A stretch of 63,054 bases of DNA from an uncultured Alphaproteobacteria bacterium (GTDB taxonomy: Bacteria; Pseudomonadota; Alphaproteobacteria; CAAHEQ01; UBA3637). A program made the position numbers and the translations under genes. Location of the stretch: assembly GCA_949286465.1 (NCBI GenBank), contig CASECI010000003.1, forward strand, positions 1 to 63,054. The letters run 5' to 3'. The notes under the pieces were generated by a model. That model did not search any database and was not told the origin of the DNA. It worked only from the letters and a program-made list of their open reading frames with translations. Positions 1 to 57,387 of this stretch are shown one piece after another (position 1 is the stretch's first letter; each line of letters begins with the position of its first letter).

Positions 1-274
1 CAGTTGTCCGGAAGTCATAGAATAAAGTTGTTGACTATCAAGAGCGGCGAGTTCCCATAAATGAACATCATGAATGGTGTCATTGGCTTTATATTTAGCA
101 AAAGCCCACATCAACCCCGCTACAGCAGATACAGATAAAACCCCAATGATGGCTAATACAGCCAGCATCTCTATCATACTGCGGCCCTGTTGAAAAAAGG
201 AAGAAGTGATTGAGTTTAAAGGATTATCTTTCCGAGGGGGGGGGGGTAATATTATTATTGTGAATGAAGTGCAT
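1..274 (-). CDS. Type IV prepilin-like N-terminal domain protein. Only the 5' part is in the window (it runs off the left edge). The best start codon is out of frame because of a G11 tract.
   Basis: The minus-strand frame is open from 237 to 1 and reads ...PRKDNPLNSITSSFFQQG|RSMIEMLAVLAIIGVLSVSAVAGLMWAFAKYKANDTIHDV... It has Gly at -1, Glu at +5 and a hydrophobic helix, and is clearly paralogous to the N-terminus of ORF 4624..6609. ATG 274-272 has AGGAGA 7 nt upstream (282-287) but is in another frame and stops at 226-224. The only in-frame ATG is 177-175, inside the helix. Confidence 0.6.
236..246. repeat. Homopolymeric G11 tract (C11 on the coding strand of the left-edge pilin-like gene)
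   Basis: I counted 11 consecutive G directly (236-246). It is the longest G/C homopolymer I saw in this AT-rich window. It lies 27 nt downstream of ATG 274. Confidence 0.95.
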
Positions 275-300
275 TTGAATTTCTCCTATCTATTCCTATT

Positions 301-329
301 TTATTAGGAGATTTTTCCCAGATTGTCAA
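301..329 (-). promoter_or_regulatory. Candidate sigma70-type promoter for the left-edge pilin-like gene
   Basis: On the minus strand: TTGACA (329-324), a 17-nt spacer, then TAATAA (306-301). It sits about 30 nt upstream of the AGGAGA/ATG. The -10 matches only 3 of 6 positions. Confidence 0.3.
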
Positions 330-418
330 ATTTATTTTCCAATAAAGATAATGCTTGAAAAAAATAGATAATGTGATAAAGATAAAGCATCGGTCTAATT
401 TCATAAAAGGAAAAGTAA

Positions 419-1180
419 ATGAGAAGAAAATTAATCGCTGGCAATTGGAAGATGAATGGTTTAACTCAGGATGGAGTTGCTTTAGCAAAGGGTTTGTCAG
501 ATTTATATAGAACTCTAACAAAACCTTCCTTTGATATGTTCATCGCACCACCTTTTACGCTTTTATCAAAAGTCGTAGAGACAGCAAAAGAATCTGGAAT
601 TTGGGTTGGGGGTCAGGATTGTTCTATGTATGATTCTGGAGCACATACAGGTGATGTCAGTCCTGTAATGCTGAAAGATTTGGGCTGTGGTGGTGTGATT
701 GTTGGACATTCAGAACGTCGTGCAGATCATGGCGAAACGAATGACATCGTAAAAGCAAAGGCCGAAGCAGCATTAAAAGCAGGGTTAGGTGTTATTATTT
801 GTGTTGGGGAGACTTTGGCAGAAAGAGAAGCTGGAAAGACTTTAGATGTCGTGGGTTCTCAAATTAAAGGCTCTGTTCCTGAAGGAGCTAAAGCAGGTCA
901 TGTTGTTATTGCATACGAACCTGTCTGGGCAATTGGAACAGGAAAAACGCCAACAACAGATGATGTTCAAGAAGTTCATGCATTTATGCGTCAAAAATTG
1001 GCTGGTTTGCTGGGTGAAGAAACGGCACAACAAATGCAATTGTTGTACGGCGGTTCGGTAAAACCGAGTAATGCGAAAGAATTGTTAAGCTTGCCGGATG
1101 TGGACGGTGCTTTGGTCGGCGGTGCCAGTTTGAAAGTTGATGATTTCTGGGCAATTGCTTCGACTCAGTTGAGTGCGTAA
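419..1180 (+). CDS. tpiA: Triosephosphate isomerase
   Basis: 253 aa. Contains AGNWKMN, VGHSERR and AYEPVWAIGTG, the classical TIM motifs. Confidence 0.95.
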   Translation: MRRKLIAGNWKMNGLTQDGVALAKGLSDLYRTLTKPSFDMFIAPPFTLLSKVVETAKESGIWVGGQDCSMYDSGAHTGDVSPVMLKDLGCGGVIVGHSERRADHGETNDIVKAKAEAALKAGLGVIICVGETLAEREAGKTLDVVGSQIKGSVPEGAKAGHVVIAYEPVWAIGTGKTPTTDDVQEVHAFMRQKLAGLLGEETAQQMQLLYGGSVKPSNAKELLSLPDVDGALVGGASLKVDDFWAIASTQLSA

Positions 1181-1193
1181 TAGGTCTCAAAGA

Positions 1194-1877
1194 ATGGTTA
1201 TTTTACTAAAAGTAACAGCTTGCATGCTTTTGATGGGATTGATTTCTTTTCCATCTTATGCAACAGATGCGCGCTTTAAGGCATGCCTTGAGCAATTTCC
1301 GCAAGAAATTAATTTACTTGATTCAGTCGATGAATTATCGCATCCGGTAGAAAAAAAGCAAATAACTGACTACGAGGTAAAAATACCGGGAATGGGTTAT
1401 GGAGTCTATTATCAAGGGCGTCTAGTGATCAAAAATGATTTAAATGGAGAGGTTGGGCCTATGTGTCAGATCAGCTTTTTTGTTTATTCGGCGGAGATGA
1501 ATCCTGAAACAAAAATGATCCCTTTGTCACGAGAAGCTCAAGTCGAGCATTTAATTTTATCAACGGCTGCTCTGGGAGAAACATCAGGTCGAACCAGAAA
1601 AAAGCTGGACTCTATGACTAACAATATACCCGAGAATGCGCAGTTAATGGCTTTGTTCAGTGAGACAACTGTGGATGACATGTCGTTTGTGGTAGCGACA
1701 AGCTTATACGAAAATGAAACGGAACGTATTCTGATCGGTTCTTATCAAAAACATTATTTGAAAACCTTGTTGACTTGTGATAGTTTGGGAGATATAGAAG
1801 CAGACAAGAAATACATGTCGATAATTACCCCTAACTTCATGGAAGAAGCAGTTCATGCATTGAAAAAATGCCAATAA
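1194..1877 (+). CDS. Hypothetical secreted protein
   Basis: The ORF track starts at GTG 1173. ATG 1194 gives MVILLKVTACMLLMGLISFPSYA|TDA, which is signal-peptide-like. I recognised no family. Confidence 0.5.
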   Translation: MVILLKVTACMLLMGLISFPSYATDARFKACLEQFPQEINLLDSVDELSHPVEKKQITDYEVKIPGMGYGVYYQGRLVIKNDLNGEVGPMCQISFFVYSAEMNPETKMIPLSREAQVEHLILSTAALGETSGRTRKKLDSMTNNIPENAQLMALFSETTVDDMSFVVATSLYENETERILIGSYQKHYLKTLLTCDSLGDIEADKKYMSIITPNFMEEAVHALKKCQ

Positions 1878-4623: not shown

Positions 4624-6609
4624 ATGAAACAAAATCACAATCGGCAACATGGTCGAACATTATTAGAGATGTTAGGAGTACTCGCAATTATAGGCGTATT
4701 AAGCATAACAGCGTTAGTAGGTTTTACCTATGCGATGAATAAGAACCGAGCAAATACGACAATATACGATGTGATGCTGCGCGGGACGAATGTTCCGATG
4801 ATAGATGAGAACTATTATAGTAAGCCTTCAGGGTATGAGTTTCATTTTGCGGGCTTAGGGGATGGAACATACTATTCCATGTCGACGAAGAAGGATAGCG
4901 GTCGTTCATATTATGTAGAAGTGACGGGAGTCAGCTATCGCGTATGTGAACTCATCTTAAAGATGGAGCCGACGGACATAGACCAGATAGTAGTGAATAA
5001 TTCCGTTTATCAAGGGGACAGTGATATATGCGGAAGCACAGATGGTTTAGCGATGCGGTTCTGTTTTGGAAGTGATGGAACGATATGTAATGGGACAGGA
5101 ACCGGGGGTGGCACTAGTTCCGGTGGTATAGGTTCTGGAGGAGATGGTAGTTCTGGGAGTAGTTCAGGAGGCGGATCAGGTAATCTCTGTTCTGGAAAAG
5201 ATTGTGGTTCGCATGGAACATGTCAAAATGGAGTATGCGTATGTCAAGATGGATATAGTGGAATTGATTGCCGTATACCTCCAATTGACTTATGTCAGAA
5301 TGTAGAATGTGATAATTGTTTTGTTTGCGAATATGGAGAATGTGTTGCGGATACTTCTAATACTGAGTGTAATTGTGAGGATTGGGGAGGTTCCGTTGTA
5401 ACGGTAGCGGGAGGAAGTTGCTGTAATGAGTCTATAGAATGTTGTAAGGTAAATGCAACTGACTGTATGGAGGAGTGCGTTCCTACTGAAGAGAATTGTC
5501 CGACTGACTGCGAAAATATATTAAATCCAGAGAAAAAATGTTCAGATAATTCTGAAGGCTATTGGTCTGTTACAATTAAAGGAAAACCTTCAGGAACTGC
5601 TGACGGCTGTTGTCTGAATTGTATGGGAGAACCCATTCCTCAGGCTTATTGGGATGGCTCTCAAGGAAAGTGTTGTTTGAATCCTGTTTACGAAATTAAA
5701 GGAAAAACAGGAGAGTATTATTGTTGTGAAGAAAAAGATTCGCGACCGTATTATGGAGGAAGTTATACAGGAGTGCAATGTTGTGAGGACAATATAGTAT
5801 TGTCTAGTAAGAGTCCAGAAGAGACTACTTATCAATGTTGTAAGGGGACTGAATACCCTCAATATGAAAATGAAGAATATGGATATTATGCATGTTGTGA
5901 AGGAGAAGTTTATTCAGATCGTTATGGCGGAAAAGCGTGTTGTTGGAATAGTGATAATTACGATCCTTATAATTATAGTGGTGTCAAGCATAATAAATTA
6001 GTTTATCTATTAGATTCTAATAAGAATCAGACAAGTGAGCAAATTTGTTGTCCGACAGAAAAAGTCGAATGGAATAGTGAAACAGGAGAACAAGAGGTTG
6101 TGGAAATTTTAGAACCTTTATTTGGTCATTATGACGGATCGTATAAGTGTTGTGATGGCACGCCATATAAGGGAGGCTACCCTGATCATGTCCACTGTTG
6201 TCCGAAAGGAGGAACTGTTTTTAGAGATGTTGCTCCTTATGGAGGATATAATGCAACAGAGATTTGTTGTGAAGCGGGAACAACTTATTACTCGTACATG
6301 GGAGGATGCGCTGAGAACCCAACAAAAGAAGAGGGAGGTGGAAAATGTTGTCCTATTGGACATAAAGCATCATCCTTTGATGGTTGTTGTGAAAATGAAA
6401 CAGATATTGTAGTTAGCTATACATTTGCACATGGAGGACATTGTGCGGCAGGATACAGTACTGTATGTTGTCCACCGGGGTATTATGGAGGGTCTCAACA
6501 TCGGCAAGGTGGAGGAGTTAATATAATTAAATGTTGTCCTAATGGGGTTGATGAAGAAACTTGTATTAATTCTGATATAGGTATTGTTAAATCATCTGTT
6601 TATGGTTAA
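4624..6609 (+). CDS. Large cysteine-rich protein with a prepilin-type N-terminal leader, a Gly/Ser linker, an EGF-like module and CC-doublet repeats
   Basis: MKQNHNRQHG|RTLLEMLGVLAIIGVLSITALVGF has Gly at -1, Glu at +5 and a hydrophobic helix. The G/S-rich linker is at about 5092-5184. CSGKDCGSHGTCQNGVCVCQDGYSGIDC (5188-5271) has six-Cys EGF spacing. About 17 CC doublets follow. AGAGG lies 8 nt before the ATG. Confidence 0.75.
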   Translation: MKQNHNRQHGRTLLEMLGVLAIIGVLSITALVGFTYAMNKNRANTTIYDVMLRGTNVPMIDENYYSKPSGYEFHFAGLGDGTYYSMSTKKDSGRSYYVEVTGVSYRVCELILKMEPTDIDQIVVNNSVYQGDSDICGSTDGLAMRFCFGSDGTICNGTGTGGGTSSGGIGSGGDGSSGSSSGGGSGNLCSGKDCGSHGTCQNGVCVCQDGYSGIDCRIPPIDLCQNVECDNCFVCEYGECVADTSNTECNCEDWGGSVVTVAGGSCCNESIECCKVNATDCMEECVPTEENCPTDCENILNPEKKCSDNSEGYWSVTIKGKPSGTADGCCLNCMGEPIPQAYWDGSQGKCCLNPVYEIKGKTGEYYCCEEKDSRPYYGGSYTGVQCCEDNIVLSSKSPEETTYQCCKGTEYPQYENEEYGYYACCEGEVYSDRYGGKACCWNSDNYDPYNYSGVKHNKLVYLLDSNKNQTSEQICCPTEKVEWNSETGEQEVVEILEPLFGHYDGSYKCCDGTPYKGGYPDHVHCCPKGGTVFRDVAPYGGYNATEICCEAGTTYYSYMGGCAENPTKEEGGGKCCPIGHKASSFDGCCENETDIVVSYTFAHGGHCAAGYSTVCCPPGYYGGSQHRQGGGVNIIKCCPNGVDEETCINSDIGIVKSSVYG

Positions 6610-9834: not shown

Positions 9835-10149
9835 ATGGCTGAAGTAATTGTAGAACCAAATGATGAATATGATATTCTCCAGAACGAAGATAATGAAATA
9901 TTAATCGCTTTGCGGGCTCGTATGGGCGGGGTAGAAGAGCCTCGTATTTTATATGATGGGCGTGATAAAATTTTATTTTATCGGAATGAAGATCAGACGA
10001 TTGTTTTTGAACAGATTGCACCAGATGTCGCTCAGGCAATTATGTTAGTTGATAAGGTTTTGTTTGTAGAGGTACGTGATGAAGCGATTGTTCGCGAATA
10101 TATGGTACCTCTTCAAAAGGTTCCTCGCATTCCTACAATTAAAGATTAA
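9835..10149 (+). CDS. Hypothetical small acidic protein
   Basis: 104-aa ORF flanked by terminators on both sides. I recognised no family. Confidence 0.45.
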   Translation: MAEVIVEPNDEYDILQNEDNEILIALRARMGGVEEPRILYDGRDKILFYRNEDQTIVFEQIAPDVAQAIMLVDKVLFVEVRDEAIVREYMVPLQKVPRIPTIKD

Positions 10150-10162
10150 AAATCTTTACTTT

Positions 10163-10191
10163 AAAAAAGAGGCTTTCAAAGCCTCTTTTTT
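10163..10191. terminator. Bidirectional terminator between the 9835 ORF and tyrS
   Basis: AAAAAAGAGGC-TTTCAAA-GCCTCTTTTTT, with an A-run and a T-run on either side. Confidence 0.8.
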
Positions 10192-10198
10192 GCTTCTT

Positions 10199-11419
10199 TT
10201 ATTCTTTTAGCTCAAAGAAATGTCTCTTCCCGATTTTTATTTTAGTTCCTGAGTTTATAGAAATGAGTTGATTCGTATCTGTACATTTATCACTATTGAC
10301 AGAAACAGCACCACTTTCTATTAATCGACGGAGGGAAGATTTACTTTCTGTTGGAATTAATGTTGCACATAAGTCTAAAAGTTTTACTGAGCTATTTATT
10401 TCAAAAGAAAGGTTACTTATACAAACAGGTTCAAATGTCTTAGAATCAAAGCCTTTTTGTTGAACCTGTTTATAGAAAAAGTTTTCAGCTTCTTGAGCGG
10501 CTTTTTCATCGTGATATTGTTTAACAATATTAAAAGCAACCTTCTTTTTAATGTCCATCGGATTTGTTTTTCCGTTTTTCAAATCAGCAATCATATTGAC
10601 TTTTGTTTCTTCATCAAAATCAGTTGTCAATTGGATCCATTCTTCCAACAAATCATCTGGAATAGACATTGTTTTGCCATACATGTCATTGGCTGGTTCT
10701 GTCAGACCGATATAGTTATTCTTTGACTTACTCATTTTCATGACGCCGTCTAATCCGCGTAGCAAAGGCATGCACAAAACAACCTGGCCATTTTTTTTGC
10801 CAAAGCTTTCTTGAAGGTTTTTCCCAACGAGATTATTAAATAACTGATCTCTACCACCGAATTCAATATCTGAATTAATTTCGACAGAATCATATCCTTG
10901 TAACATGGGGTACAAAAGCTCATGTAAAGCAATAGGGATATTATTTGTATAGCGTGTATTAAAATCCTCTCTTTGCATCATTTGAGCAAGAGTTGCTCGG
11001 CTTAACAATTTGATGACATCAGAGAAAGTCATTTTCCCTAACCAATCATTGTTGAAATGAATCGTTAAGCGTTCAGTTCCAACAACTTTATGAAGTTGTT
11101 CAATATAAGTCTGCGCGTTTATTTTCACTTCTTCAGCTGTTAAAGGTGGGCGCGTTGTATTTCGTCCTGTCGGATCGCCTATTTGAGCTGTAAAATCACC
11201 GACGATTAAATGGATTTCATGCCCAGCTTCCTGGAATTCACGAATTTTCTTTAAAACAACGGCGTGACCTAAGTGCAAGTCAGGCGCTGTTGGATCCATG
11301 CCTAATTTAATGATCAATGGTCGTTTTTCTGTTTCTGCCTCTTTTAACTTTTCAGCCAAACCATTTACAGGAACGATCATTTCAATACCTTTAGATAGTT
11401 TTTCGAGTTGTGATGACAT
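10199..11419 (-). CDS. tyrS: Tyrosine--tRNA ligase (type 2, with C-terminal S4-like domain)
   Basis: 406 aa with the class I signatures HLGH (DLHLGHAV) and KMSKS (MKMSKSKNN). The C-terminal SLRRLIESGAVSVN is S4-like. Confidence 0.9.
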   Translation of the reverse strand: MSSQLEKLSKGIEMIVPVNGLAEKLKEAETEKRPLIIKLGMDPTAPDLHLGHAVVLKKIREFQEAGHEIHLIVGDFTAQIGDPTGRNTTRPPLTAEEVKINAQTYIEQLHKVVGTERLTIHFNNDWLGKMTFSDVIKLLSRATLAQMMQREDFNTRYTNNIPIALHELLYPMLQGYDSVEINSDIEFGGRDQLFNNLVGKNLQESFGKKNGQVVLCMPLLRGLDGVMKMSKSKNNYIGLTEPANDMYGKTMSIPDDLLEEWIQLTTDFDEETKVNMIADLKNGKTNPMDIKKKVAFNIVKQYHDEKAAQEAENFFYKQVQQKGFDSKTFEPVCISNLSFEINSSVKLLDLCATLIPTESKSSLRRLIESGAVSVNSDKCTDTNQLISINSGTKIKIGKRHFFELKE

Positions 11420-14117: not shown

Positions 14118-15074
14118 ATGTTGGAAGTCATTAAAACATCAGAAGCAGAACCTTATCAAATTGATGTCGGACCACTACAAAATGTGATACGACGAGATGG
14201 TCAACTTGTTTCTTTTGACGCCTCTAAGATTGTAAAAGCGATAGAAAAAGCAGGTCAAGCAACAGGTGAGTTTGGCTTGGACGAGGCTTGGTTGTTAGCA
14301 AACCAAGTTGTTAAAGTTTTAAAACATCGCTTTGCACATGGTACGGCTCCTCAAATAGAGCAAATACAAGATGTTGTTGAGCAATGTTTAATTTCTGCGA
14401 ACTATTATAAAACAGCCAGGGCTTACATAGTGTATCGCGAGCAGCGTGAAAGAGGCCGTCAGGATAAAAGGACTGTTGTTGACGTTATTTCTTCTATTAA
14501 CGAATATTTAGATAGGTCCGACTGGCGAGTTAATGCGAACGCGAATCAAGGGTATTCATTAGGGGGATTAATTCTCAATATTTCAGGAAAGATGATAGCC
14601 AATTATTGGCTTAATCATGTTTACCCGAAAGAAGTTGGTGAAGCTCATAAATGTGGGGACTATCACATTCATGATTTAGATATGTTGTCAGGTTATTGTG
14701 CAGGATGGTCTTTAAAGACACTTTTGATTGAAGGATTTAATGGTGTTCCAAATAAAGTTGAATCTATGCCTCCTAAACATTTAGATTCTGCTTTCGGTCA
14801 AATGGTTAATTTCTTAGGAACGCTTCAAAATGAATGGGCTGGAGCTCAAGCTTTTAGCTCTGCAGATACATATCTAGCACCATTTATTCGTAAAGATAAT
14901 TTATCTTATGAAGATGTTAAGCAAGGGATGCAGTCATTCATTTATAACTTAAATGTTCCATCAAGATGGGGGACACAAACGCCATTTACAAACTTGACAT
15001 TTGATTGGGTTTGCCCAGAAGATTTAAGAGGTGTTCATCCTATTATTGGTGGGGAAGAGATGCCTTTTACGTAG
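14118..15074 (+). CDS. nrdD: Anaerobic ribonucleoside-triphosphate reductase, N-terminal fragment (ATP-cone plus start of the barrel), ending at an in-frame TAG
   Basis: VIRRDGQLVSFDASKIVKAIEKA is an ATP-cone, and HIHDLD is also present. The ORF stops at TAG 15072-15074 and continues in the same frame. Confidence 0.85.
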   Translation: MLEVIKTSEAEPYQIDVGPLQNVIRRDGQLVSFDASKIVKAIEKAGQATGEFGLDEAWLLANQVVKVLKHRFAHGTAPQIEQIQDVVEQCLISANYYKTARAYIVYREQRERGRQDKRTVVDVISSINEYLDRSDWRVNANANQGYSLGGLILNISGKMIANYWLNHVYPKEVGEAHKCGDYHIHDLDMLSGYCAGWSLKTLLIEGFNGVPNKVESMPPKHLDSAFGQMVNFLGTLQNEWAGAQAFSSADTYLAPFIRKDNLSYEDVKQGMQSFIYNLNVPSRWGTQTPFTNLTFDWVCPEDLRGVHPIIGGEEMPFT

Positions 15075-15080
15075 GGAGAT

Positions 15081-16175
15081 TTGCAAGCAGAAATGGATAT
15101 GATTAATCGAGCATATATTGAAGTTATGACAGCTGGAGATGCTCATGGTCGTCCATTTACTTTCCCAATTCCAACTTACAATATTACAAAGGATTTTCCA
15201 TGGGATGCTGAAAATACAAATCGTTTATTCGAAATGACAGCTAAATATGGATTGCCATATTTCCAAAACTTCATTAATTCAAGTCTTTCTCCAAAACAAG
15301 TTCGTTCCATGTGTTGCCGATTACAATTAGATTTGTCTCAATTGTTAGCCAAAGGAAATGGATTATTTGGCTCAGCAGAGCAAACAGGCTCTATTGGTGT
15401 CGTAACAATCAATTGTGCTCGTTTAGGTTATCTATATAAAGGGAATGAAGACGCTCTTATGAAGCGTTTAGATGAGTTGTTGGATTTGGCGCGGACCTCT
15501 TTAGAAATTAAACGTAAGGTCATTCAATCCCATATGGATACAGGATTATTCCCATTTACGAAGAGATATTTAGGTACATTACGTAATCATTTCTCTACAA
15601 TTGGTGTCAATGGTATTAATGAAATGATCCGTAATTTTACAAATGATGAGCATAACATAGCAGATGTAGAAGGTATGAAATTTGCTATTCGTTTCTTAGA
15701 TCATATTCGAGAGAAGATGATTCAATTCCAATCTGAAACGGGGCATATGTATAATTTAGAGGCAACTCCGGCCGAAGGAACTACATACCGCTTTGCACGT
15801 GAGGATCAAAAACGCTTCCCTGATATTATTCAGGCGGGAACGCATGATGCGCCTTATTATACGAATTCATCTCAATTACCATCGGGATACACAGATGATC
15901 CGTTTGAAGCATTAAATTTACAAGATACTTTACAAACAAAGTATACAGGAGGAACAGTTTTACACTTATACATGAGTGAGCGGATATCGAATTCTGATAC
16001 ATGTAAGTCGTTCATGCGTCGTGTATTAGAGAACTATCATTTACCATATGTGACTATTACACCCGTCTTTTCTATTTGTCCAAAGCATGGATATTTAGCC
16101 GGTGAGCATAAGTTCTGTCCAATTTGTGATGAAGAACTGATTGCTAAAAAGCGCAAAATGGTTTCAGCATCTTAA
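15081..16175 (+). CDS. nrdD: Anaerobic ribonucleoside-triphosphate reductase, central fragment, in the same frame as 14118..15074
   Basis: GRPFTFPIPTYNITKDFPWD, MCCRLQLD and NLEATPAEG are class III RNR signatures. It ends after FCPICDEE at TAA 16173-16175. The first ATG in this frame is at 15093. Confidence 0.85.
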   Translation: MQAEMDMINRAYIEVMTAGDAHGRPFTFPIPTYNITKDFPWDAENTNRLFEMTAKYGLPYFQNFINSSLSPKQVRSMCCRLQLDLSQLLAKGNGLFGSAEQTGSIGVVTINCARLGYLYKGNEDALMKRLDELLDLARTSLEIKRKVIQSHMDTGLFPFTKRYLGTLRNHFSTIGVNGINEMIRNFTNDEHNIADVEGMKFAIRFLDHIREKMIQFQSETGHMYNLEATPAEGTTYRFAREDQKRFPDIIQAGTHDAPYYTNSSQLPSGYTDDPFEALNLQDTLQTKYTGGTVLHLYMSERISNSDTCKSFMRRVLENYHLPYVTITPVFSICPKHGYLAGEHKFCPICDEELIAKKRKMVSAS

Positions 16176-19967: not shown

Positions 19968-21155
19968 TTATTTCCCCTTTTTCTTTTGATTCGCAGCAAA
20001 CCAACTTGTCGGATTGATCGGTTGGCCGTCTTTTCTAAATTCAATATATAACTTTTGTGGACCACTTGTCGACATATTTCCGACAGGTTCTCCTGTTAAA
20101 ATATCTTGTTCTACATTTGCTTGAATATCTCCAAGCCCAGCCATAAGAGAATGATATCCTTCTCCGTGTTCTACAATAATAAGATTACCATAGCTTTTAA
20201 ATGGCCCCGCAAATAAAACGGTTCCATCAAATGGAGCAACAACTTGAGCTCCAGCTCTTGTTTGGAGAGTTATGCCTTTGGCGGTTAATCCAGAATCTAA
20301 TTTTTCTCCGTAAGTTTGAATAATTTGTCCTCGAACTGGTAATGGTAGATTTCCTTTTGATTTTCTGAAGGCTGTATCATTTCGTGCAGGCATCGGAATG
20401 TTAAAAATAGGTTTTTGCTTATGAGCTAAAGATAATGTTTTTCGTCTTTCTCTCTCTAATTTTTGTAATAAGTCTTGTAAATCTTTTGCTTGCTTTCCTA
20501 ATTCTATGCTTTTACGTTTTGCTTGTTGACTTTCTGTTTCAAAGTGTGTTTGTAAGATGAATTTTTGTTTCATCAGTTTTTCCATGTTACTTTTTTCATC
20601 AGCAAGACGTTGTGAAGCAACTTTTATCTGAGCTGATTGAGCGCGTAAAGCAGCTTGAAGTGAATTTAAAGTATCTAAATCTTGTCTTAACTTTTCCGTT
20701 TGAGCTTGCAGAGGGGCTCTTCCTTCTTTTAAAAGAATAGAAGTTCTTAATGCTTGGATGGGATTATTTTGTTGGAAAAATAGAGTATTTGGCGGATTAA
20801 TAGCCATTTTTTGTAAGGCACTCATAAGGCCAACAAGTTGTTTTTGTCTCAGGAGCAATCGTGTATTAATTTTATTTTCTTCTTCTTGAAGTTCAGCTTG
20901 TTTTTTTTCTAATTTAGTCAGCGTCTCTTCAAAGTCTTGAACAGTCTGCGCCGCTTCCACCATTTTTTTTTGGACAGAGGAGACTTCAGAGGCAACATCT
21001 TGAGCTTTTTTGTGTAATGCTCGATGCATTTGCTGCTCTTCTTTAATTTGAGCCTGTAATTTTTTTAAGTCATTTGTGGACGGAGCTGCATAACTCATTA
21101 TGTTGAGCCCTGTTAAGAGTATCAATAAACAAAAAAAGATGCAGCTCTGTCTCAA
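19968..21155 (-). CDS. Coiled-coil M23/LytM peptidase (EnvC-like murein hydrolase activator)
   Basis: 395 aa with a signal peptide, a long Q/E/K-rich coiled coil and a C-terminal LytM-like domain (GNLIIVEHGEGYHSLMAG). Confidence 0.8.
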   Translation of the reverse strand: MRQSCIFFCLLILLTGLNIMSYAAPSTNDLKKLQAQIKEEQQMHRALHKKAQDVASEVSSVQKKMVEAAQTVQDFEETLTKLEKKQAELQEEENKINTRLLLRQKQLVGLMSALQKMAINPPNTLFFQQNNPIQALRTSILLKEGRAPLQAQTEKLRQDLDTLNSLQAALRAQSAQIKVASQRLADEKSNMEKLMKQKFILQTHFETESQQAKRKSIELGKQAKDLQDLLQKLERERRKTLSLAHKQKPIFNIPMPARNDTAFRKSKGNLPLPVRGQIIQTYGEKLDSGLTAKGITLQTRAGAQVVAPFDGTVLFAGPFKSYGNLIIVEHGEGYHSLMAGLGDIQANVEQDILTGEPVGNMSTSGPQKLYIEFRKDGQPINPTSWFAANQKKKGK

Positions 21156-21159
21156 AATC

Positions 21160-22701
21160 TTAGCCTTTTTTTAACAAAGAATGGCCCGTCATTTCTTCTG
21201 GCTTAGAGAGATTCATTAAGTCTAATAAAGTAGGAGCTATATCAGCTAAACGTCCCTCTTCTAATCCAACAATATCTTTAGGTGGACAAACTAAAACAGC
21301 TTTCACAGGAAGAGTTGTATGAGCCGTATAAGGAGCTCCAGTTGTTTCATCTTTCATCAGCTCAGCATTGCCGTGATCCGCTGTTACAAGCATGGTCCCG
21401 CCAACTTCGCAGACAGCTTTTTCGACTCTTCCTATACATTCATCGACAGCTTCGACAGCTTTTACTGCCGCTTCCATAATGCCGGTATGTCCAACCATGT
21501 CTCCATTTGCGTAATTGACGATAATCGCATCAAATTTCTTAGATAAAATTGCTTCAACAAGTTTATCTGTCACCTCATAGGCAGACATTTCTGGCTTTAA
21601 GTCATAGGTTGCCACTTTAGGGCTAGGAACTAAAATACGTTCTTCGCCTTTAAACATTTTTTCTTCTCCGCCATTAAAAAAGAAAGTGACATGAGCATAT
21701 TTCTCTGTTTCGGCAATTCTCAATTGTGTTTTGTTATTTTCTTCTAAAACTTCTCCAAAGATATGCTTTAACTCGACAGGTGGAAAGAGTGTTTTCAGCC
21801 ATTGTTTATGTGCTTCAGAATATTCAGCCATACCAACAGCGATTGAAAAATGAATAGTTTTTGTTCTTTCAGCTTTATCAAAAGAAGGATTTAAAAGCAT
21901 CTCTAAGATTTCACGAGCTCTATCAGAACGATAGTTGACCATTAAAACGGCATCACCATCTTTCATGCCACTATAATCTCCAATAACTACAGGCTTCATA
22001 AATTCGTCAGTGATACCAGCATCATAAGAAGCTTTAATGGCCTCATCAGGAGTAGAAAAACGAGGAGCGTCTGCATTTACTAAGGCATTGTAAGCTAATG
22101 TAATACGTTCCCAACGATTGTCACGATCCATTGCGTAATATCTTCCGCTAATAACTGTAATTTTTGTGTTTTTTAAATTTTTTGTTTCTTCTAAAAATTG
22201 TTGAACATAGCCTCTTCCAGAATCAGGAGGTGTATCTCGGCCGTCTAGATAAGCATCAATATATACAGGAATACCAGCTTCATCTAGAATCTGAGCAAGA
22301 GCAATAAAGTGATTCATATGAGAATGAACCCCCCCTGGTGACATTAAGCCCATTAAATGGCAATGTCCTTTTGTTTCTTTTAATTTAGAAATCAAATCTA
22401 ATAAAACAGGATTATTTTTTATGGCCCCGCTTTTAATAGCTTCATCAATTCGAGGTAAATCCTGCATCACAACTCTACCAGCCCCTAAATTTGTGTGCCC
22501 TACTTCTGAATTGCCCATTTGACCATCGGGCAAACCGACGTCTAAGCCAGATGTATGAATAGTTGCTGTTGGGTATTCTTTGAGCCAACGATGCCAGTTC
22601 GGCGTATTTCCAGTCTCTATCGCATTATCTTTTTTTTCTGCGCGATATCCCCAGCCATCTAAAACACAAAGGATAACTGGTTTTGGTGTTTGTTGTGTCA
22701 T
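21160..22701 (-). CDS. gpmI: 2,3-bisphosphoglycerate-independent phosphoglycerate mutase
   Basis: 513 aa. Contains ILCVLDGWG, NSEVGHTNLGAGR and ADHGNAE. Confidence 0.95.
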   Translation of the reverse strand: MTQQTPKPVILCVLDGWGYRAEKKDNAIETGNTPNWHRWLKEYPTATIHTSGLDVGLPDGQMGNSEVGHTNLGAGRVVMQDLPRIDEAIKSGAIKNNPVLLDLISKLKETKGHCHLMGLMSPGGVHSHMNHFIALAQILDEAGIPVYIDAYLDGRDTPPDSGRGYVQQFLEETKNLKNTKITVISGRYYAMDRDNRWERITLAYNALVNADAPRFSTPDEAIKASYDAGITDEFMKPVVIGDYSGMKDGDAVLMVNYRSDRAREILEMLLNPSFDKAERTKTIHFSIAVGMAEYSEAHKQWLKTLFPPVELKHIFGEVLEENNKTQLRIAETEKYAHVTFFFNGGEEKMFKGEERILVPSPKVATYDLKPEMSAYEVTDKLVEAILSKKFDAIIVNYANGDMVGHTGIMEAAVKAVEAVDECIGRVEKAVCEVGGTMLVTADHGNAELMKDETTGAPYTAHTTLPVKAVLVCPPKDIVGLEEGRLADIAPTLLDLMNLSKPEEMTGHSLLKKG

Positions 22702-46806: not shown

Positions 46807-47730
46807 ATGGGAATTGCTCGAAAAATTAAACACTTTAAAAATACTTATATAGGAACTCGTCTCTATGGCGTAAAACATTATAATTGGTGGATTGAAACAG
46901 ATAATGAAGGGTGGTTCGCAAGATTTATTTCTCACCGTTTTTCGGAAAAAGAAGCTCGACAATTTAGTCTTGTGTCTGTGTTTGGAAAAAGACAAACTTT
47001 TTGGTTTAATCGAAAAGAAAAAAAAATATTTTATACAGGAGAAAATGTAAAACGCTATCCTGAATATTTAGATCATGCTCTTCCTTATACAGTATTATCT
47101 ATGGGATTTGATTACTTAGACCACCCTAAGTATATTCGCTTTCCTTTATGGATTGCTTATTTATTTGATGGGACAGAAACATTAGAGGAATTACACCATA
47201 AAGTTGAAGTTATAAATAAGGCACATTATGCCAAGACAGATTTTGCAAGCTTAATTGCCCGTCACGAAGGAGATACAGGATTACGGAAAGAATTGTATCA
47301 AGCTATAAATTCTATAGCCCCTATTTCTTGTGCAGGATCTTTTTTACATAATGATGATCGATTATGGAAAGATTTTAATAATCAAAAAATTGATTATCTT
47401 CGCCAGTTCCAATTTTCTATTTGTCCCGAAAACAGTAATAGTTATGGATATGTGACTGAAAAGGTTTTTGAGGCATTTAAGGCTAGAACAGTTCCAATTT
47501 ACTGGGGATCGAACAATCAAGTTGAAGTAGGACTTGTAAATCAGGATGCAATTTTGTTTTGGAAACAAGGAGATAATAATCTAAAAGTTTTAGAGACAAT
47601 TAATGATTTATATACACATCCTAAACATTATGATGACTTTATTGCTCAGTCTCCATTACTTCCGGATTTGGCAGATTATGTTTTTGATACATATCAAAAA
47701 GTTGAAAACCATTTAAGAAGATTGCTTTAA
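46807..47730 (+). CDS. GT10-family glycosyltransferase (alpha-1,3/4-fucosyltransferase-like)
   Basis: 307 aa. FQFSICPENSNSYGYVTEKVFEAFKARTVPIYWG matches the FxxxxENSxxxxYxTEK fucosyltransferase motif. Confidence 0.6.
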   Translation: MGIARKIKHFKNTYIGTRLYGVKHYNWWIETDNEGWFARFISHRFSEKEARQFSLVSVFGKRQTFWFNRKEKKIFYTGENVKRYPEYLDHALPYTVLSMGFDYLDHPKYIRFPLWIAYLFDGTETLEELHHKVEVINKAHYAKTDFASLIARHEGDTGLRKELYQAINSIAPISCAGSFLHNDDRLWKDFNNQKIDYLRQFQFSICPENSNSYGYVTEKVFEAFKARTVPIYWGSNNQVEVGLVNQDAILFWKQGDNNLKVLETINDLYTHPKHYDDFIAQSPLLPDLADYVFDTYQKVENHLRRLL

Positions 47731-55465: not shown

Positions 55466-56518
55466 ATGGAAAATAAGAAAAAAAAGTGGTGGATGCCTGA
55501 TTTGTATATGAAAAATAATGATAAACGAATGTATCGTATTTGTGTTCTTCATGAGATCCGCCGTTTTTTTGAACAAGAAGGTTTTGCAGAAGTTGAGACG
55601 CCTGCAGTACAAGTTTCTCCAGGATTAGAGGTACATTTAAAAGCTTTTGAGACGTCTTTATATGATCCATTGAATGATACCTATTATAAACGTTATTTGC
55701 ATACGTCTCCAGAGTTTACGATGAAGAAGTTATTGGCTGCTGGATTACCTCGAATTTTCCAAATGTGTAAAGTGTATAGAAATGAGGCAAAATCAAGCAC
55801 GCATCACCCTGAATTTACAATGCTTGAATGGTATCGTTCTCATGCAACTTACGAACAAATGATGGAGGATACAGAACGGCTTGTAAAGTGTTGTACAAAA
55901 GCATGTAAGGCAGAGGTTCTTAAACGAGGAGAACGTTGGTCTGATCCTTTTGAGCCTTGGCAAAAATTGACAGTCCAAGAAGCATTCTTAAAGTTTACTG
56001 GAATAGATATTATGAAGACCATACCGGATGAGCCAACATTAGAACCAAGTCCAGTTTTACTTAAAAAAGAAGCCGAAAAAATAGGAATTCATTGTTCTGA
56101 TGAAGATAGATGGGAAGATATTTTCTTTAGAATAATGTTAAATTGTATTGAAGATAAATTAGGGGATGGTGTTCCTGTTATTCTTTATGATTATCCGACT
56201 TGTTTGGGGGCGTTAGCTCGAAAGAAGCCAACAGATCCAAGAGTCGTAGAAAGATTTGAAGCCTATATATGTGGTGTTGAATTATGTAATGCTTTTTCAG
56301 AATTGATAGACCCGATAGAACAAAGGCAAAGATTTGAATATGATATGGCTATGAAGGAAAAGTTATATGGCGAAAAATATCCATTAGACGAGGATTTCTT
56401 AGAAGCTCTTTCCTATATGCCAGATTGCGCAGGAAATGCAATAGGGGTAGATAGACTGGTTATGCTTATCACAGGAGCTGAATCAATAGAAGATGTTTTA
56501 TGGGCTCCAGTCAGTTAG
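55466..56518 (+). CDS. epmA: EF-P--(R)-beta-lysine ligase (truncated class II LysRS paralogue)
   Basis: IRRFFEQEGFAEVETP, HTSPEFTMKKLL, HHPEFTMLEWY and GNAIGVDRLVML are collinear with E. coli EpmA/PoxA as I recall it. The true start may be an internal Met. Confidence 0.85.
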   Translation: MENKKKKWWMPDLYMKNNDKRMYRICVLHEIRRFFEQEGFAEVETPAVQVSPGLEVHLKAFETSLYDPLNDTYYKRYLHTSPEFTMKKLLAAGLPRIFQMCKVYRNEAKSSTHHPEFTMLEWYRSHATYEQMMEDTERLVKCCTKACKAEVLKRGERWSDPFEPWQKLTVQEAFLKFTGIDIMKTIPDEPTLEPSPVLLKKEAEKIGIHCSDEDRWEDIFFRIMLNCIEDKLGDGVPVILYDYPTCLGALARKKPTDPRVVERFEAYICGVELCNAFSELIDPIEQRQRFEYDMAMKEKLYGEKYPLDEDFLEALSYMPDCAGNAIGVDRLVMLITGAESIEDVLWAPVS

Positions 56519-57387
56519 TATTTAAAAATAAGGATATTTTCTTTATTAATACATCCTTTAACACCAATTGGGAGGATTAAACGACTAGGACCATGACCAT
56601 AGTTTAGCCCCTGATACATAGGCACATTCATGAACCGTGTATGAAAATCTTCTAAAACGTCTTGTATTGTTCCATCTTCTTTATCACTTGAAATACATTG
56701 ATAAAAGTTACCCAAAATAACTGCTTTGACTTGGTTAAATATTCCGGCTAGTCTTAAATGTGTAAGCATTCGATCAATTTTATAAGGTTCCTCCATCACA
56801 TCTTCTAAAAATAAAATCTTATCAGTAAAATCAGGTTGATAGGGTGTACCGATTAATTCATCTATTAATGAGAGTGTACCACCAATAAGAATACCTTCTG
56901 TTTCTTTTTGTTTCCCCATGTTTTGAAGGGAAACAGAAAAAGATTTCTGAGATAAATACATATTAAAACTTTGCTCAATAAGAAAATCAACACCCGTTTC
57001 TGTAATATCTCTTCTAGGAGAGAGACCTGTATAGCTAATAAGACCCGTTTTGGCATAGATTCCTAATTGTAAAGCCGTTGTGTCGCTAAAGCCTATGAGG
57101 GGTTTGGGATGTTCTTTTATTAAATTATAGTCTAATAAATCTAAAAGTCGACCAGAGCCATACCCCCCCTTGAGGGCAAGTAATATATCAACTTCAGGAT
57201 TTTTAAGTAAGCTGTGAATATCGCCTGCACGTTCTTCGTCAGTTCCAGCAAGGAAGCGATTTTTTTCTAATAAATGTTCTGCAAAAATGACAGAGAGACC
57301 TTTTTTTTGAAACCAAGATTCTATTAAATTCTTATCAATAGGGGTTGATGAAGGACTGGATGGATTAAAAATTCCGACTGTTGTCAT
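56515..57387 (-). CDS. ldcA: LD-carboxypeptidase (S66, muramoyl-tetrapeptide carboxypeptidase)
   Basis: 290 aa. The GFSDTTAL nucleophile motif is present. It overlaps the upstream Mur-ligase gene by 4 nt. Confidence 0.8.
   Translation of the reverse strand: MTTVGIFNPSSPSSTPIDKNLIESWFQKKGLSVIFAEHLLEKNRFLAGTDEERAGDIHSLLKNPEVDILLALKGGYGSGRLLDLLDYNLIKEHPKPLIGFSDTTALQLGIYAKTGLISYTGLSPRRDITETGVDFLIEQSFNMYLSQKSFSVSLQNMGKQKETEGILIGGTLSLIDELIGTPYQPDFTDKILFLEDVMEEPYKIDRMLTHLRLAGIFNQVKAVILGNFYQCISSDKEDGTIQDVLEDFHTRFMNVPMYQGLNYGHGPSRLILPIGVKGCINKENILIFKY

Follow-up and report, generated by a model that had tools for sequence, protein, structure and literature searches.

Most known simple-sequence contingency loci come from cultured mucosal pathogens (Neisseria, Haemophilus, Campylobacter, Helicobacter, and Bordetella), and for gut commensals, most of what is known of phase variation concerns invertible promoters in Bacteroides. 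The stretch analyzed here, referred to as the window, is 63,054 nucleotides (nt) of chromosomal DNA (35.8% GC) from an uncultured human-gut alphaproteobacterium (contig CASECI010000003.1). It begins inside a gene for a large pilin-like protein, and the 5' end of that gene carries a run of 11 cytosines on the coding strand (C11; G11 on the plus strand). We consider it probable that this run is a real simple-sequence contingency tract, which would act as a classical slipped-strand ON/OFF switch of the pilin-like surface protein. The mechanism itself is known; what is new is an alphaproteobacterial lineage without a described case and an uncharacterized, greatly expanded protein family.

G/C tracts of at least 9 nt phase-vary in the Neisseria pilC, pgl, and lgt genes and in Bordetella fim promoters (PMC5953494, PMC1891110). 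In Neisseria gonorrhoeae and Neisseria meningitidis, pilC1 and pilC2 carry a poly-G tract within the reading frame (Jonsson et al. 1991, as cited in PMC5953494). The arrangement proposed here would resemble these genes in having a G/C homopolymer of 9 to 20 nt near the 5' end of a pilus-associated adhesin gene, with one-base slippage giving translational ON/OFF control, and in having several copies, each independently switched. However, PilC is not a pilin and has a Sec signal peptide, whereas the window tract lies in the prepilin (class III) leader of a pilin-like modular protein, and the putative switching would take place in an uncultured gut alphaproteobacterium. In the Neisseria opa genes, the repeats are CTCTT pentamers in the part that encodes the signal peptide, and they are listed among genic repeats (PMC5953494). 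Like opa, the family described here would be a multigene surface-protein family in which a repeat in a cleaved leader alters the frame but not the mature protein, and in which most copies are OFF at once; unlike it, the opa repeat is a pentamer rather than a homopolymer, and Opa proteins are beta-barrel outer-membrane proteins.

Two further systems have their tracts in promoters, and a third compares in protein architecture. Bordetella fim2, fim3, and fimX have a promoter "C-stretch" (PMC1891110), such that fimbrial paralogues are each under a C/G promoter homopolymer of 10 to 19 nt. This matches paralogues of the window gene with a TTGACA-G11-13-TAnnnT promoter (L005, L009, L011, L014, L016, L023, L025, and L026), but the tract of the window gene itself is in the coding leader, and the Bordetella promoters are BvgA dependent and serve fimbriae of the chaperone-usher type. 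Neisseria opc and porA likewise have poly-C/poly-G promoter tracts (opc, PMC3960869), where the homopolymer lies between the -35 and -10 boxes and spacer length sets promoter strength, a parallel that applies to the paralogues and not to the window gene. Modular type IV pilins, such as Streptococcus sanguinis PilB (PMC8179133), fuse a pilin module (class III leader, alpha1 helix, and small globular domain) to a large, likely adhesive C-terminal module. The proteins of the present family share this plan, but as putative filament subunits they differ from PilB in an uncharacterized Cys-rich, EGF-like C-terminal region, an Arg at +1, and leaders of 10 to about 95 amino acids.

On the minus strand of the window, a Shine-Dalgarno sequence and an ATG are followed by the codons CAC TTC ATT CAC AAT AAT AAT ATT A, the C11 run, and TCG GAA AGA TAA, so the ATG frame in this state yields MHFIHNNNITPPPSER and then a stop. 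The +1 frame is open from position 235 to the window edge and translates as RKDNPLNSITSSFFQQGRSMIEMLAVLAIIGVLSVSAVAGLMWAFAKYKANDTIHDVHLWELAALDSQQLYSMTSGQL; its reading of the leader remainder and the sequence downstream is RKDNPLNSITSSFFQQG RSMIEMLAVLAIIGVLSVSAVAGLMWAFAKYKANDTIHDVHLWELAALDSQQLYSMTSGQL. Removing one C or adding two (C10 or C13) fuses the ATG to this prepilin-type frame (..QQG followed by RSMIEMLAVLAIIGVLS) and gives a leader of 30 or 31 amino acids whose last residue is Gly. This anatomy agrees with the initial annotation of the stretch, in which the Shine-Dalgarno sequence, its spacing, the ATG, C11, and the stop codon were all placed correctly (Table 1). Its further claims, that the adjacent frame is open to the window edge with a prepilin-like leader and helix, that 10 or 13 C residues would join the frames behind a Gly-ended leader, and that the gene is homologous to a second gene in the window, hold equally in the sequence reading and in the searches given below.

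C11 lies 27 nt past the ATG, in the 5' coding region where G/C homopolymers of at least about 8 to 9 nt mark contingency loci, and one-base steps in its length alternate between a full open reading frame (ORF) and an early stop: C11 gives 16 codons, and the fused relative L008 gives 662 amino acids. The next longest runs in the window are G5 and C7, and in dinucleotide-preserving shuffles of the window the expected count of G9 is 0.05; therefore, a G11 found only once is far beyond chance. Only two other G/C runs of 7 are present, at 22329-22335 in the iPGM gene (21160-22701) and at 57163-57169 in an LD-carboxypeptidase gene (56515-57387), both in frame. Terminator-like matches at 223-250 (+) were rejected as artifacts in which the G run pairs with CTTTCC, and no Rfam family was found in window positions 1 to 700. 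A consensus scan did not call a full promoter for the pilin-like gene; a TTGACA (329-324) alone is clear, and the spacer behind it has no G tract, so the gene is not of the promoter-spacer type.

The frame beyond the tract is under selection. Over the 77 codons past the tract, the ratio of nonsynonymous to synonymous substitution rates (dN/dS) is 0.08 to 0.16 at a dS of 0.24 to 0.52, and for the window copy against its relatives L003, L007, and L008 it is 0.08 to 0.13 at a dS of about 0.45. The leader segment KDNPLNSITSS lies inside these 77 codons and precedes any in-frame start codon. Because this segment is under purifying selection, it must be translated, which in turn requires initiation at the ATG upstream of the tract. 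A dN/dS of about 0.1 also implies that the gene is not decaying.

Frame states differ among the closest relatives while the ORF stays intact. Relative to the window copy (C11, OFF), L008 (87% DNA identity) has C13 at the homologous site and is in frame, reading MLFIHNKLIPPPPHQKDNPLNS..GRSMIEML.. within its intact 662-amino-acid ORF (ON). L007 (90% DNA identity) also has C13 but is out of frame (OFF, with C12 as its ON length), and its downstream frame is open for at least 610 codons. L003 (89% DNA identity) has an interrupted tract, CCCCCCTCCTCC, and is in frame, a decayed version that is locked ON. The initial annotation had proposed an ON/OFF phase switch and suggested, as a check on it, looking in other family members and in related strains for G/C tracts at this position. 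Such tracts are found in L008, in L007, and in the tpiA-linked gene of a sister species, with that of L003 decayed, and together with the promoter tracts of further relatives they make a phase switch the likely explanation. Three of the four evaluable tract-bearing copies are OFF, which is the expectation for a multicopy contingency family because two of every three lengths are OFF. The stretch between ATG and tract is free of stop codons in all five aligned homologues, and over this stretch the only differences between L001 and the window are an in-frame 3-nt insertion and H2R, which read as coding-type variation.

Other features of these paralogues were also recorded. L003 is a mosaic: it resembles L007 before the tract and matches L008 at 91% identity from the tract onward, a pattern suggestive of gene conversion between paralogues, with the tract as the breakpoint. 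Downstream of sufE, the L004 paralogue (9950-10700) has a TTG start out of frame (MKVKNINMVAV, then a stop), and a change from A5 to A6 would give MKVKKYQHGRSMIEML; with further frame breaks downstream, it is probably a pseudogene. In L008 (626-3893), type IV secretion genes immediately precede the in-frame paralogue; they comprise a VirB2/TrbC pilin gene, a likely virB3, and virB4 (PF04956, PF03135). A search of JGI metagenomes for extra alleles with the exact pattern C8-N0-12-AAAGATAATCCTTTAAA gave 0 matches.

The window gene is divergent from tpiA, and we compared this locus across samples by searching for TpiA homologues and fetching their contigs. Two contigs with identical TpiA end at the tract, L001 (99.6% DNA identity) inside it and L002 (100%) 2 nt short of it. 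In a sister species with 86% identical TpiA, the divergent gene also has a Shine-Dalgarno sequence and an ATG, starts with MTQLFNHKA(F/I)T, and continues into poly-C; the distance from tract end to tpiA start is 178 nt there and 173 nt in the window. The sister-species tract is C13 in L171, L174, L179, and L180 and C4TC14 in L172. In L171, the only contig that follows the expected sequence far beyond the tract, the ATG frame stops 3 codons past the tract, and the +1 frame has no stop for at least 85 codons, running into a long family-type leader. L172 reads through as well, with a different post-tract sequence. The sister-species copy also reads as OFF, one C too long.

Assemblies break repeatedly at this site. 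Ten independent metagenome contigs from the two species come as close as 20 nt to the tpiA-linked tract, and 8 of them stop no more than 15 nt from it (L001, L002, L173, L174, L176, L177, L179, and L180). Such breaks may be an indirect sign of mixed tract lengths within a population. At positions 1-6 of L177, a strand-flipped CCCCCC stands at the contig end where GGGGG is expected, an assembly artifact typical of poly-G ends. In the more distant TpiA relatives P0021 and P0023, an acyltransferase gene rather than the pilin-like gene is upstream of tpiA, which indicates that the pilin-like gene is a lineage-specific insertion at this site; P0020 has too little sequence upstream of tpiA to judge. 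Between tpiA and secG, the window holds a 234-amino-acid ORF (1173-1877, plus strand) with a signal-like N terminus and no Pfam match, which is conserved beside tpiA within the species (L001, L167) and absent in the sister species, where secG directly follows tpiA.

Homopolymers of the same kind are concentrated at the 5' ends of other family members. Across 80 genome loci and the window (632 kb in total), 14 of the 16 G/C runs of at least 8 fall in the 700-nt stretches that precede a family N-terminal motif, stretches that account for 10% of the total length (P of about 1e-12 in a naive binomial test, with some loci related and thus not fully independent). Three of these 14 are leader tracts. 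The remaining 11 are sense-strand G8-13 runs directly behind a perfect or near-perfect -35 box, in the layout TTGACA-N2-6-G(n)-(0 or 5 nt)-TAnnnT, with a total spacer of 18 to 19 nt in the G11-13 cases, where the loss of 1 or 2 G would be predicted to give the optimal 17 nt. Besides the promoter-tract loci named above, shorter G8-9 runs occur in L043 and L074, and L010 has the same promoter cassette with G7. Contigs also start at these tracts: L009 begins with G12, and L012 and L021 begin just past the place where the tract is expected. L011 and L016, both with G12, are true orthologues, and L005 and L025 were rejected as an orthologous G12 versus G13 pair because they have no extended similarity. 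Two further tracts stand in other settings. In L047 (2126-2137; metagenome-assembled genome [MAG] CALXVS01), a C12 run directly 5' of TTGACA, upstream of a non-family membrane-protein gene beside rlmH, may be another contingency promoter. In L106 (382-392), about 120 codons past the N terminus of a distant family gene, a G11 run stands between the arms of an inverted repeat (CAAACA/TGTTTG).

The N terminus encoded in the window passes NCBIfam TIGR02532 (prepilin-type N-terminal cleavage/methylation domain) with 24.1 bits against a cutoff of 16.3, and its Pfam N_methyl score is slightly below threshold (18.9 versus 21.2). In the TIGR02532 alignment, Gly30-Arg31 falls in register with Gly-Phe and Glu35 stands at +5 (G30-R31-S-M-I-E35 versus GFTLIE). 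A Gly-ended leader, Glu at +5, and a hydrophobic N-terminal helix of about 20 amino acids, all hallmarks of type IV pilins, are present. The window-edge fragment matches the tract-free paralogue within the same window at 58% over 45 amino acids (BLASTP, E of 9e-16), and L008 matches that paralogue at 41% identity over the 143-amino-acid N-terminal domain (E of 5e-22), past which the two diverge into Cys-rich regions with EGF-like matches. The tract-free paralogue and L008 both follow the plan of modular pilins, in which a pilin-like N-terminal domain (here of about 150 amino acids) and a separate large C-terminal module make up one polypeptide. The C-terminal part of the window-edge gene falls outside the window; judged from full-length relatives, its product would join an N-terminal prepilin module to a Cys-rich C-terminal one of about 500 amino acids. 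An AlphaFold2 model of the first 157 amino acids of the tract-free paralogue has a helix at 11-60 followed by 5 beta strands, at a mean predicted local distance difference test score of 59 (shallow 10-sequence alignment). The best Foldseek matches of this low-confidence model, all weak, are type IVb pilins (enterotoxigenic Escherichia coli 9iuf, with an E of 0.018 and a TM-score normalized to the query of 0.52, and TcpA). A sequence search of the PDB gave marginal pilin N-terminal matches alone.

Genes for the filament machinery occur beside one family member. In the related MAG locus L026, genes for T2SSE (PilB/GspE-type ATPase) and T2SSF (PilC/GspF-type platform) stand directly upstream of the family gene with the G12 promoter; no T2SSE/T2SSF machinery genes were found within the 63-kb window. 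This neighborhood and the TIGR02532 match make the product a plausible type IV filament subunit. A scan with the N-terminal-domain alignment, using one genome per species, confirmed more than 555 stretches of the family, nearly all of them in MAGs of uncultured Alphaproteobacteria that come from the guts of humans (Hadza, BRZ) and ruminants. The closest genomes are CALXTZ01 (BRZ_AF bin11; L007 and L008; 92 to 94% amino acid identity) and CALGXF01 (L009-L011, L025, and L026). Across the family, Gly-1, Arg+1, and Glu+5 are nearly invariant, and leader length ranges from about 10 to about 95 amino acids. The description that fits the product best is a modular type-IV-pilin-like protein, for which Arg+1 and the wide range of leader lengths are unusual. 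Very long (60 to 95 amino acids), G+C-rich, conserved "leaders" precede GR(S/T)xxEML in L009-L012, L014, L016, L017, L021, L023, and L171, for example, MKFSSIFGKEGFGKGSFGG...CIGGAHPRALSPRRWGKQKGRTLLEML; these are far above the usual prepilin leader length and may be translated leaders or structured 5' regions. We found no papers on this protein family in searches for the GRSMIEML motif, gut RF32/Alphaproteobacteria pilins, and metagenomic homopolymer phase variation.

If the tract is a contingency switch, slipped-strand mispairing during replication would alter its length one base at a time. At C10 or C13, the Shine-Dalgarno sequence and ATG would be joined to the prepilin frame and would produce a leader of 30 to 31 amino acids, M..ITPPP(P)RKDNPLNSITSSFFQQG, to be cleaved between Gly and Arg; at C11, the assembled state, and at C12, translation would terminate after about 16 codons (OFF). 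Because the tract would encode only prolines of the cleaved leader, changes in its length would be harmless to the mature protein. Paralogues would be switched individually, some through a C tract in the leader and others through G11-13 in the -35/-10 spacer, such that the window gene would be controlled translationally and the promoter-tract paralogues transcriptionally. Their joint effect would be combinatorial variation of surface filaments or adhesins. The anatomy, the frame relations, the conservation and length differences of the tract, the purifying selection, and the enrichment of tracts at family 5' ends are shown here; population-level slippage, leader cleavage, surface display, and function we infer. 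Even if the count in this assembly is off, hypermutability is to be expected of a conserved G/C tract of 11 to 14 nt at this site. In a more elaborate and clearly tentative version, the expanded Arg+1 prepilin-like Cys-rich family would form a lineage "phasome" in which each paralogue is independently switched and leader tracts have three expression levels, with copies one C too long rescued at a low level by a tRNA-Pro +1 shift on CCC-C and the other OFF length silent.

Several observations weigh against a contingency switch of a prepilin-type gene. The hydrophobic residue at +1 of prepilins, usually Phe or Met, is absent, since Arg occupies this position throughout the family (GR(S/T)..E), which is atypical for prepilins. 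All three out-of-frame copies (the window, the sister species, and L007) are one C too long, and the other OFF state was not seen. A close strain, L167 (TpiA 97% identical), differs at the 5' end of the gene (MFFIPKKHIIPCSE..), where the first 22 codons contain no long tract. Four of the five sister-species assemblies share C13, which is more uniform than a very fast switch might give. The contig breaks could equally be explained by poor Illumina coverage of poly-G or by multicopy family sequence just beyond the tract. Finally, in an independent sample of 80 metagenome loci, 85 distant family genes (42 to 71% identical) had no upstream G/C run of at least 8. We therefore rejected tracts as a family-wide feature, and the tract system is confined to the closest clade around the window organism.

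Among the alternatives, a length miscall survives best, although we consider it unlikely. The true tract would then be C10 or C13, the gene would simply be intact, and the frameshift would be an assembly or sequencing artifact. Long G/C homopolymers are indeed error prone, contigs end at this tract, and the strand-flipped C6 at the L177 break is spurious. However, the A9 (47018-47026) and T9 (20963-20971) runs of the window sit within intact ORFs whose frames are unbroken, indicating that the assembly has no general homopolymer-error problem. Independent assemblies of four samples agree on the out-of-frame C13 of the sister species, with at least 2 distinct alleles among them, and L007 is out of frame and L008 in frame at the same tract length, so errors would need to be gene specific. 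Even with a miscall here, the conserved tracts of 11 to 14 nt in leaders and promoter spacers still imply a hypermutable switch.

Under recoding, expression would depend on a tRNA-Pro +1 shift at CCC-C or on RNA polymerase slippage instead of DNA slippage, and copies one C too long would be expressed constitutively at a low level; we regard this as very unlikely. CCC-C is a +1-prone site, and consecutive prolines stall ribosomes. The window C11, the sister-species C13, and the L007 C13 all need exactly a +1 shift, and the shared length in four of five sister-species assemblies also counts in favor of recoding. However, the same shift in three of three copies has a chance probability of 1/8, which is not significant, and for L008 and L003, being in frame, no recoding is needed. 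Paralogues have tracts of this kind in promoter spacers, where recoding cannot act. The leader tract has no stimulatory stop or rare codon directly after it, and most documented cases of RNA polymerase slippage involve A/T runs. Taken together, the in-frame copies and the tracts in promoters point to DNA slippage as the designed variable, to which a leaky level at one C too long would be an attractive addition.

That the gene is a decaying pseudogene and the tract a functionless relic is highly improbable. L004 is damaged, with an out-of-frame start and several internal frame breaks, L003 has one internal frameshift, and L007 is without the ATG present in L003. Against this stand the purifying selection on the window copy relative to three relatives, 78 visible codons free of any further lesion, and the open frame of L007 despite its being out of frame. 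Moreover, a pure G/C run of 11 to 13 nt persists across a dS of about 0.45 in AT-rich genomes and at the same locus in two species. We give next to no credence to an internal start at 177-175 (the Met of GRS-M-IEML), which would produce a leaderless membrane-anchored protein and make the tract irrelevant: gene callers choose this ATG in out-of-frame copies (L007 ORF 139-1971; P0003), but it has no Shine-Dalgarno sequence before it, the 16 codons upstream (KDNPLNSITSS..QxGRS) are conserved at the protein level with synonymous changes, and the near-invariant Gly-1, Arg+1, and Glu+5 make sense only if translated.

Table 1. Positions of the tract, of the elements around it, and of the second family gene in the window
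Feature	Position	Strand	Remarks
Homopolymeric tract, C11 on coding strand (G11 on plus)	236..246	-	Proposed slipped-strand switch; in the ON state would encode the Pro run of the leader
Leader start codon ATG	272..274	-	Context conserved in L001, L002, and L008
Shine-Dalgarno AGGAGA	282..287	-	7-nt gap (aattcaa) to ATG; same arrangement in L008 and L001
TAA ending the 16-codon ATG frame in the present C11 (OFF) state	224..226	-	Sequence reading
Prepilin-like gene, 5' part, 78 codons, +1 frame	1..235	-	Runs off window start
Leader remainder; Gly-1; Arg+1; Glu+5	235-187; 186-184; 183-181; 171-169	-	Followed by hydrophobic alpha1 helix
Candidate -35 box, perfect TTGACA	324..329	-	Tentative; TAATAA (306-301) after 17 nt or TAAAAT after 20 nt
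Paralogue, 661 amino acids, no tract	4624..6609	+	Leader MKQNHNRQHG followed by RTLLEML; pilin-like N-terminal domain of about 150 amino acids, Gly/Ser linker, Cys-rich EGF-like C-terminal region

The rest of the window is ordinary chromosome, with tpiA, secG, kdsA, eno, yajC, secDF, tyrS, nrdD, uvrA, metK, and a CcrM-like methylase gene. The nrdD gene (14118-16175, plus strand) is split by an in-frame TAG at 15072-15074 (..EEMPFT, stop, GDLQAEMD..) into two same-frame ORFs, the first holding the ATP-cone and NRDD positions 2-170 and the second NRDD positions 175-531; the TAG could be a nonsense mutation, a sequencing error, or a site of readthrough.

If the C11 run is a slipped-strand switch, an uncultured and poorly understood human-gut alphaproteobacterium would use the same strategy as the pathogens named at the outset and would apply it to a very large, uncharacterized family of pilin-like Cys-rich proteins. 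The repeated assembly breaks at these loci would then be explained, and the tract length at each locus would be a marker, readable in existing metagenomes, of ON and OFF states within and between people. The switch would also mark the proteins of this family as surface structures under fluctuating selection, for example, by host IgA, phage, or niche adhesion.

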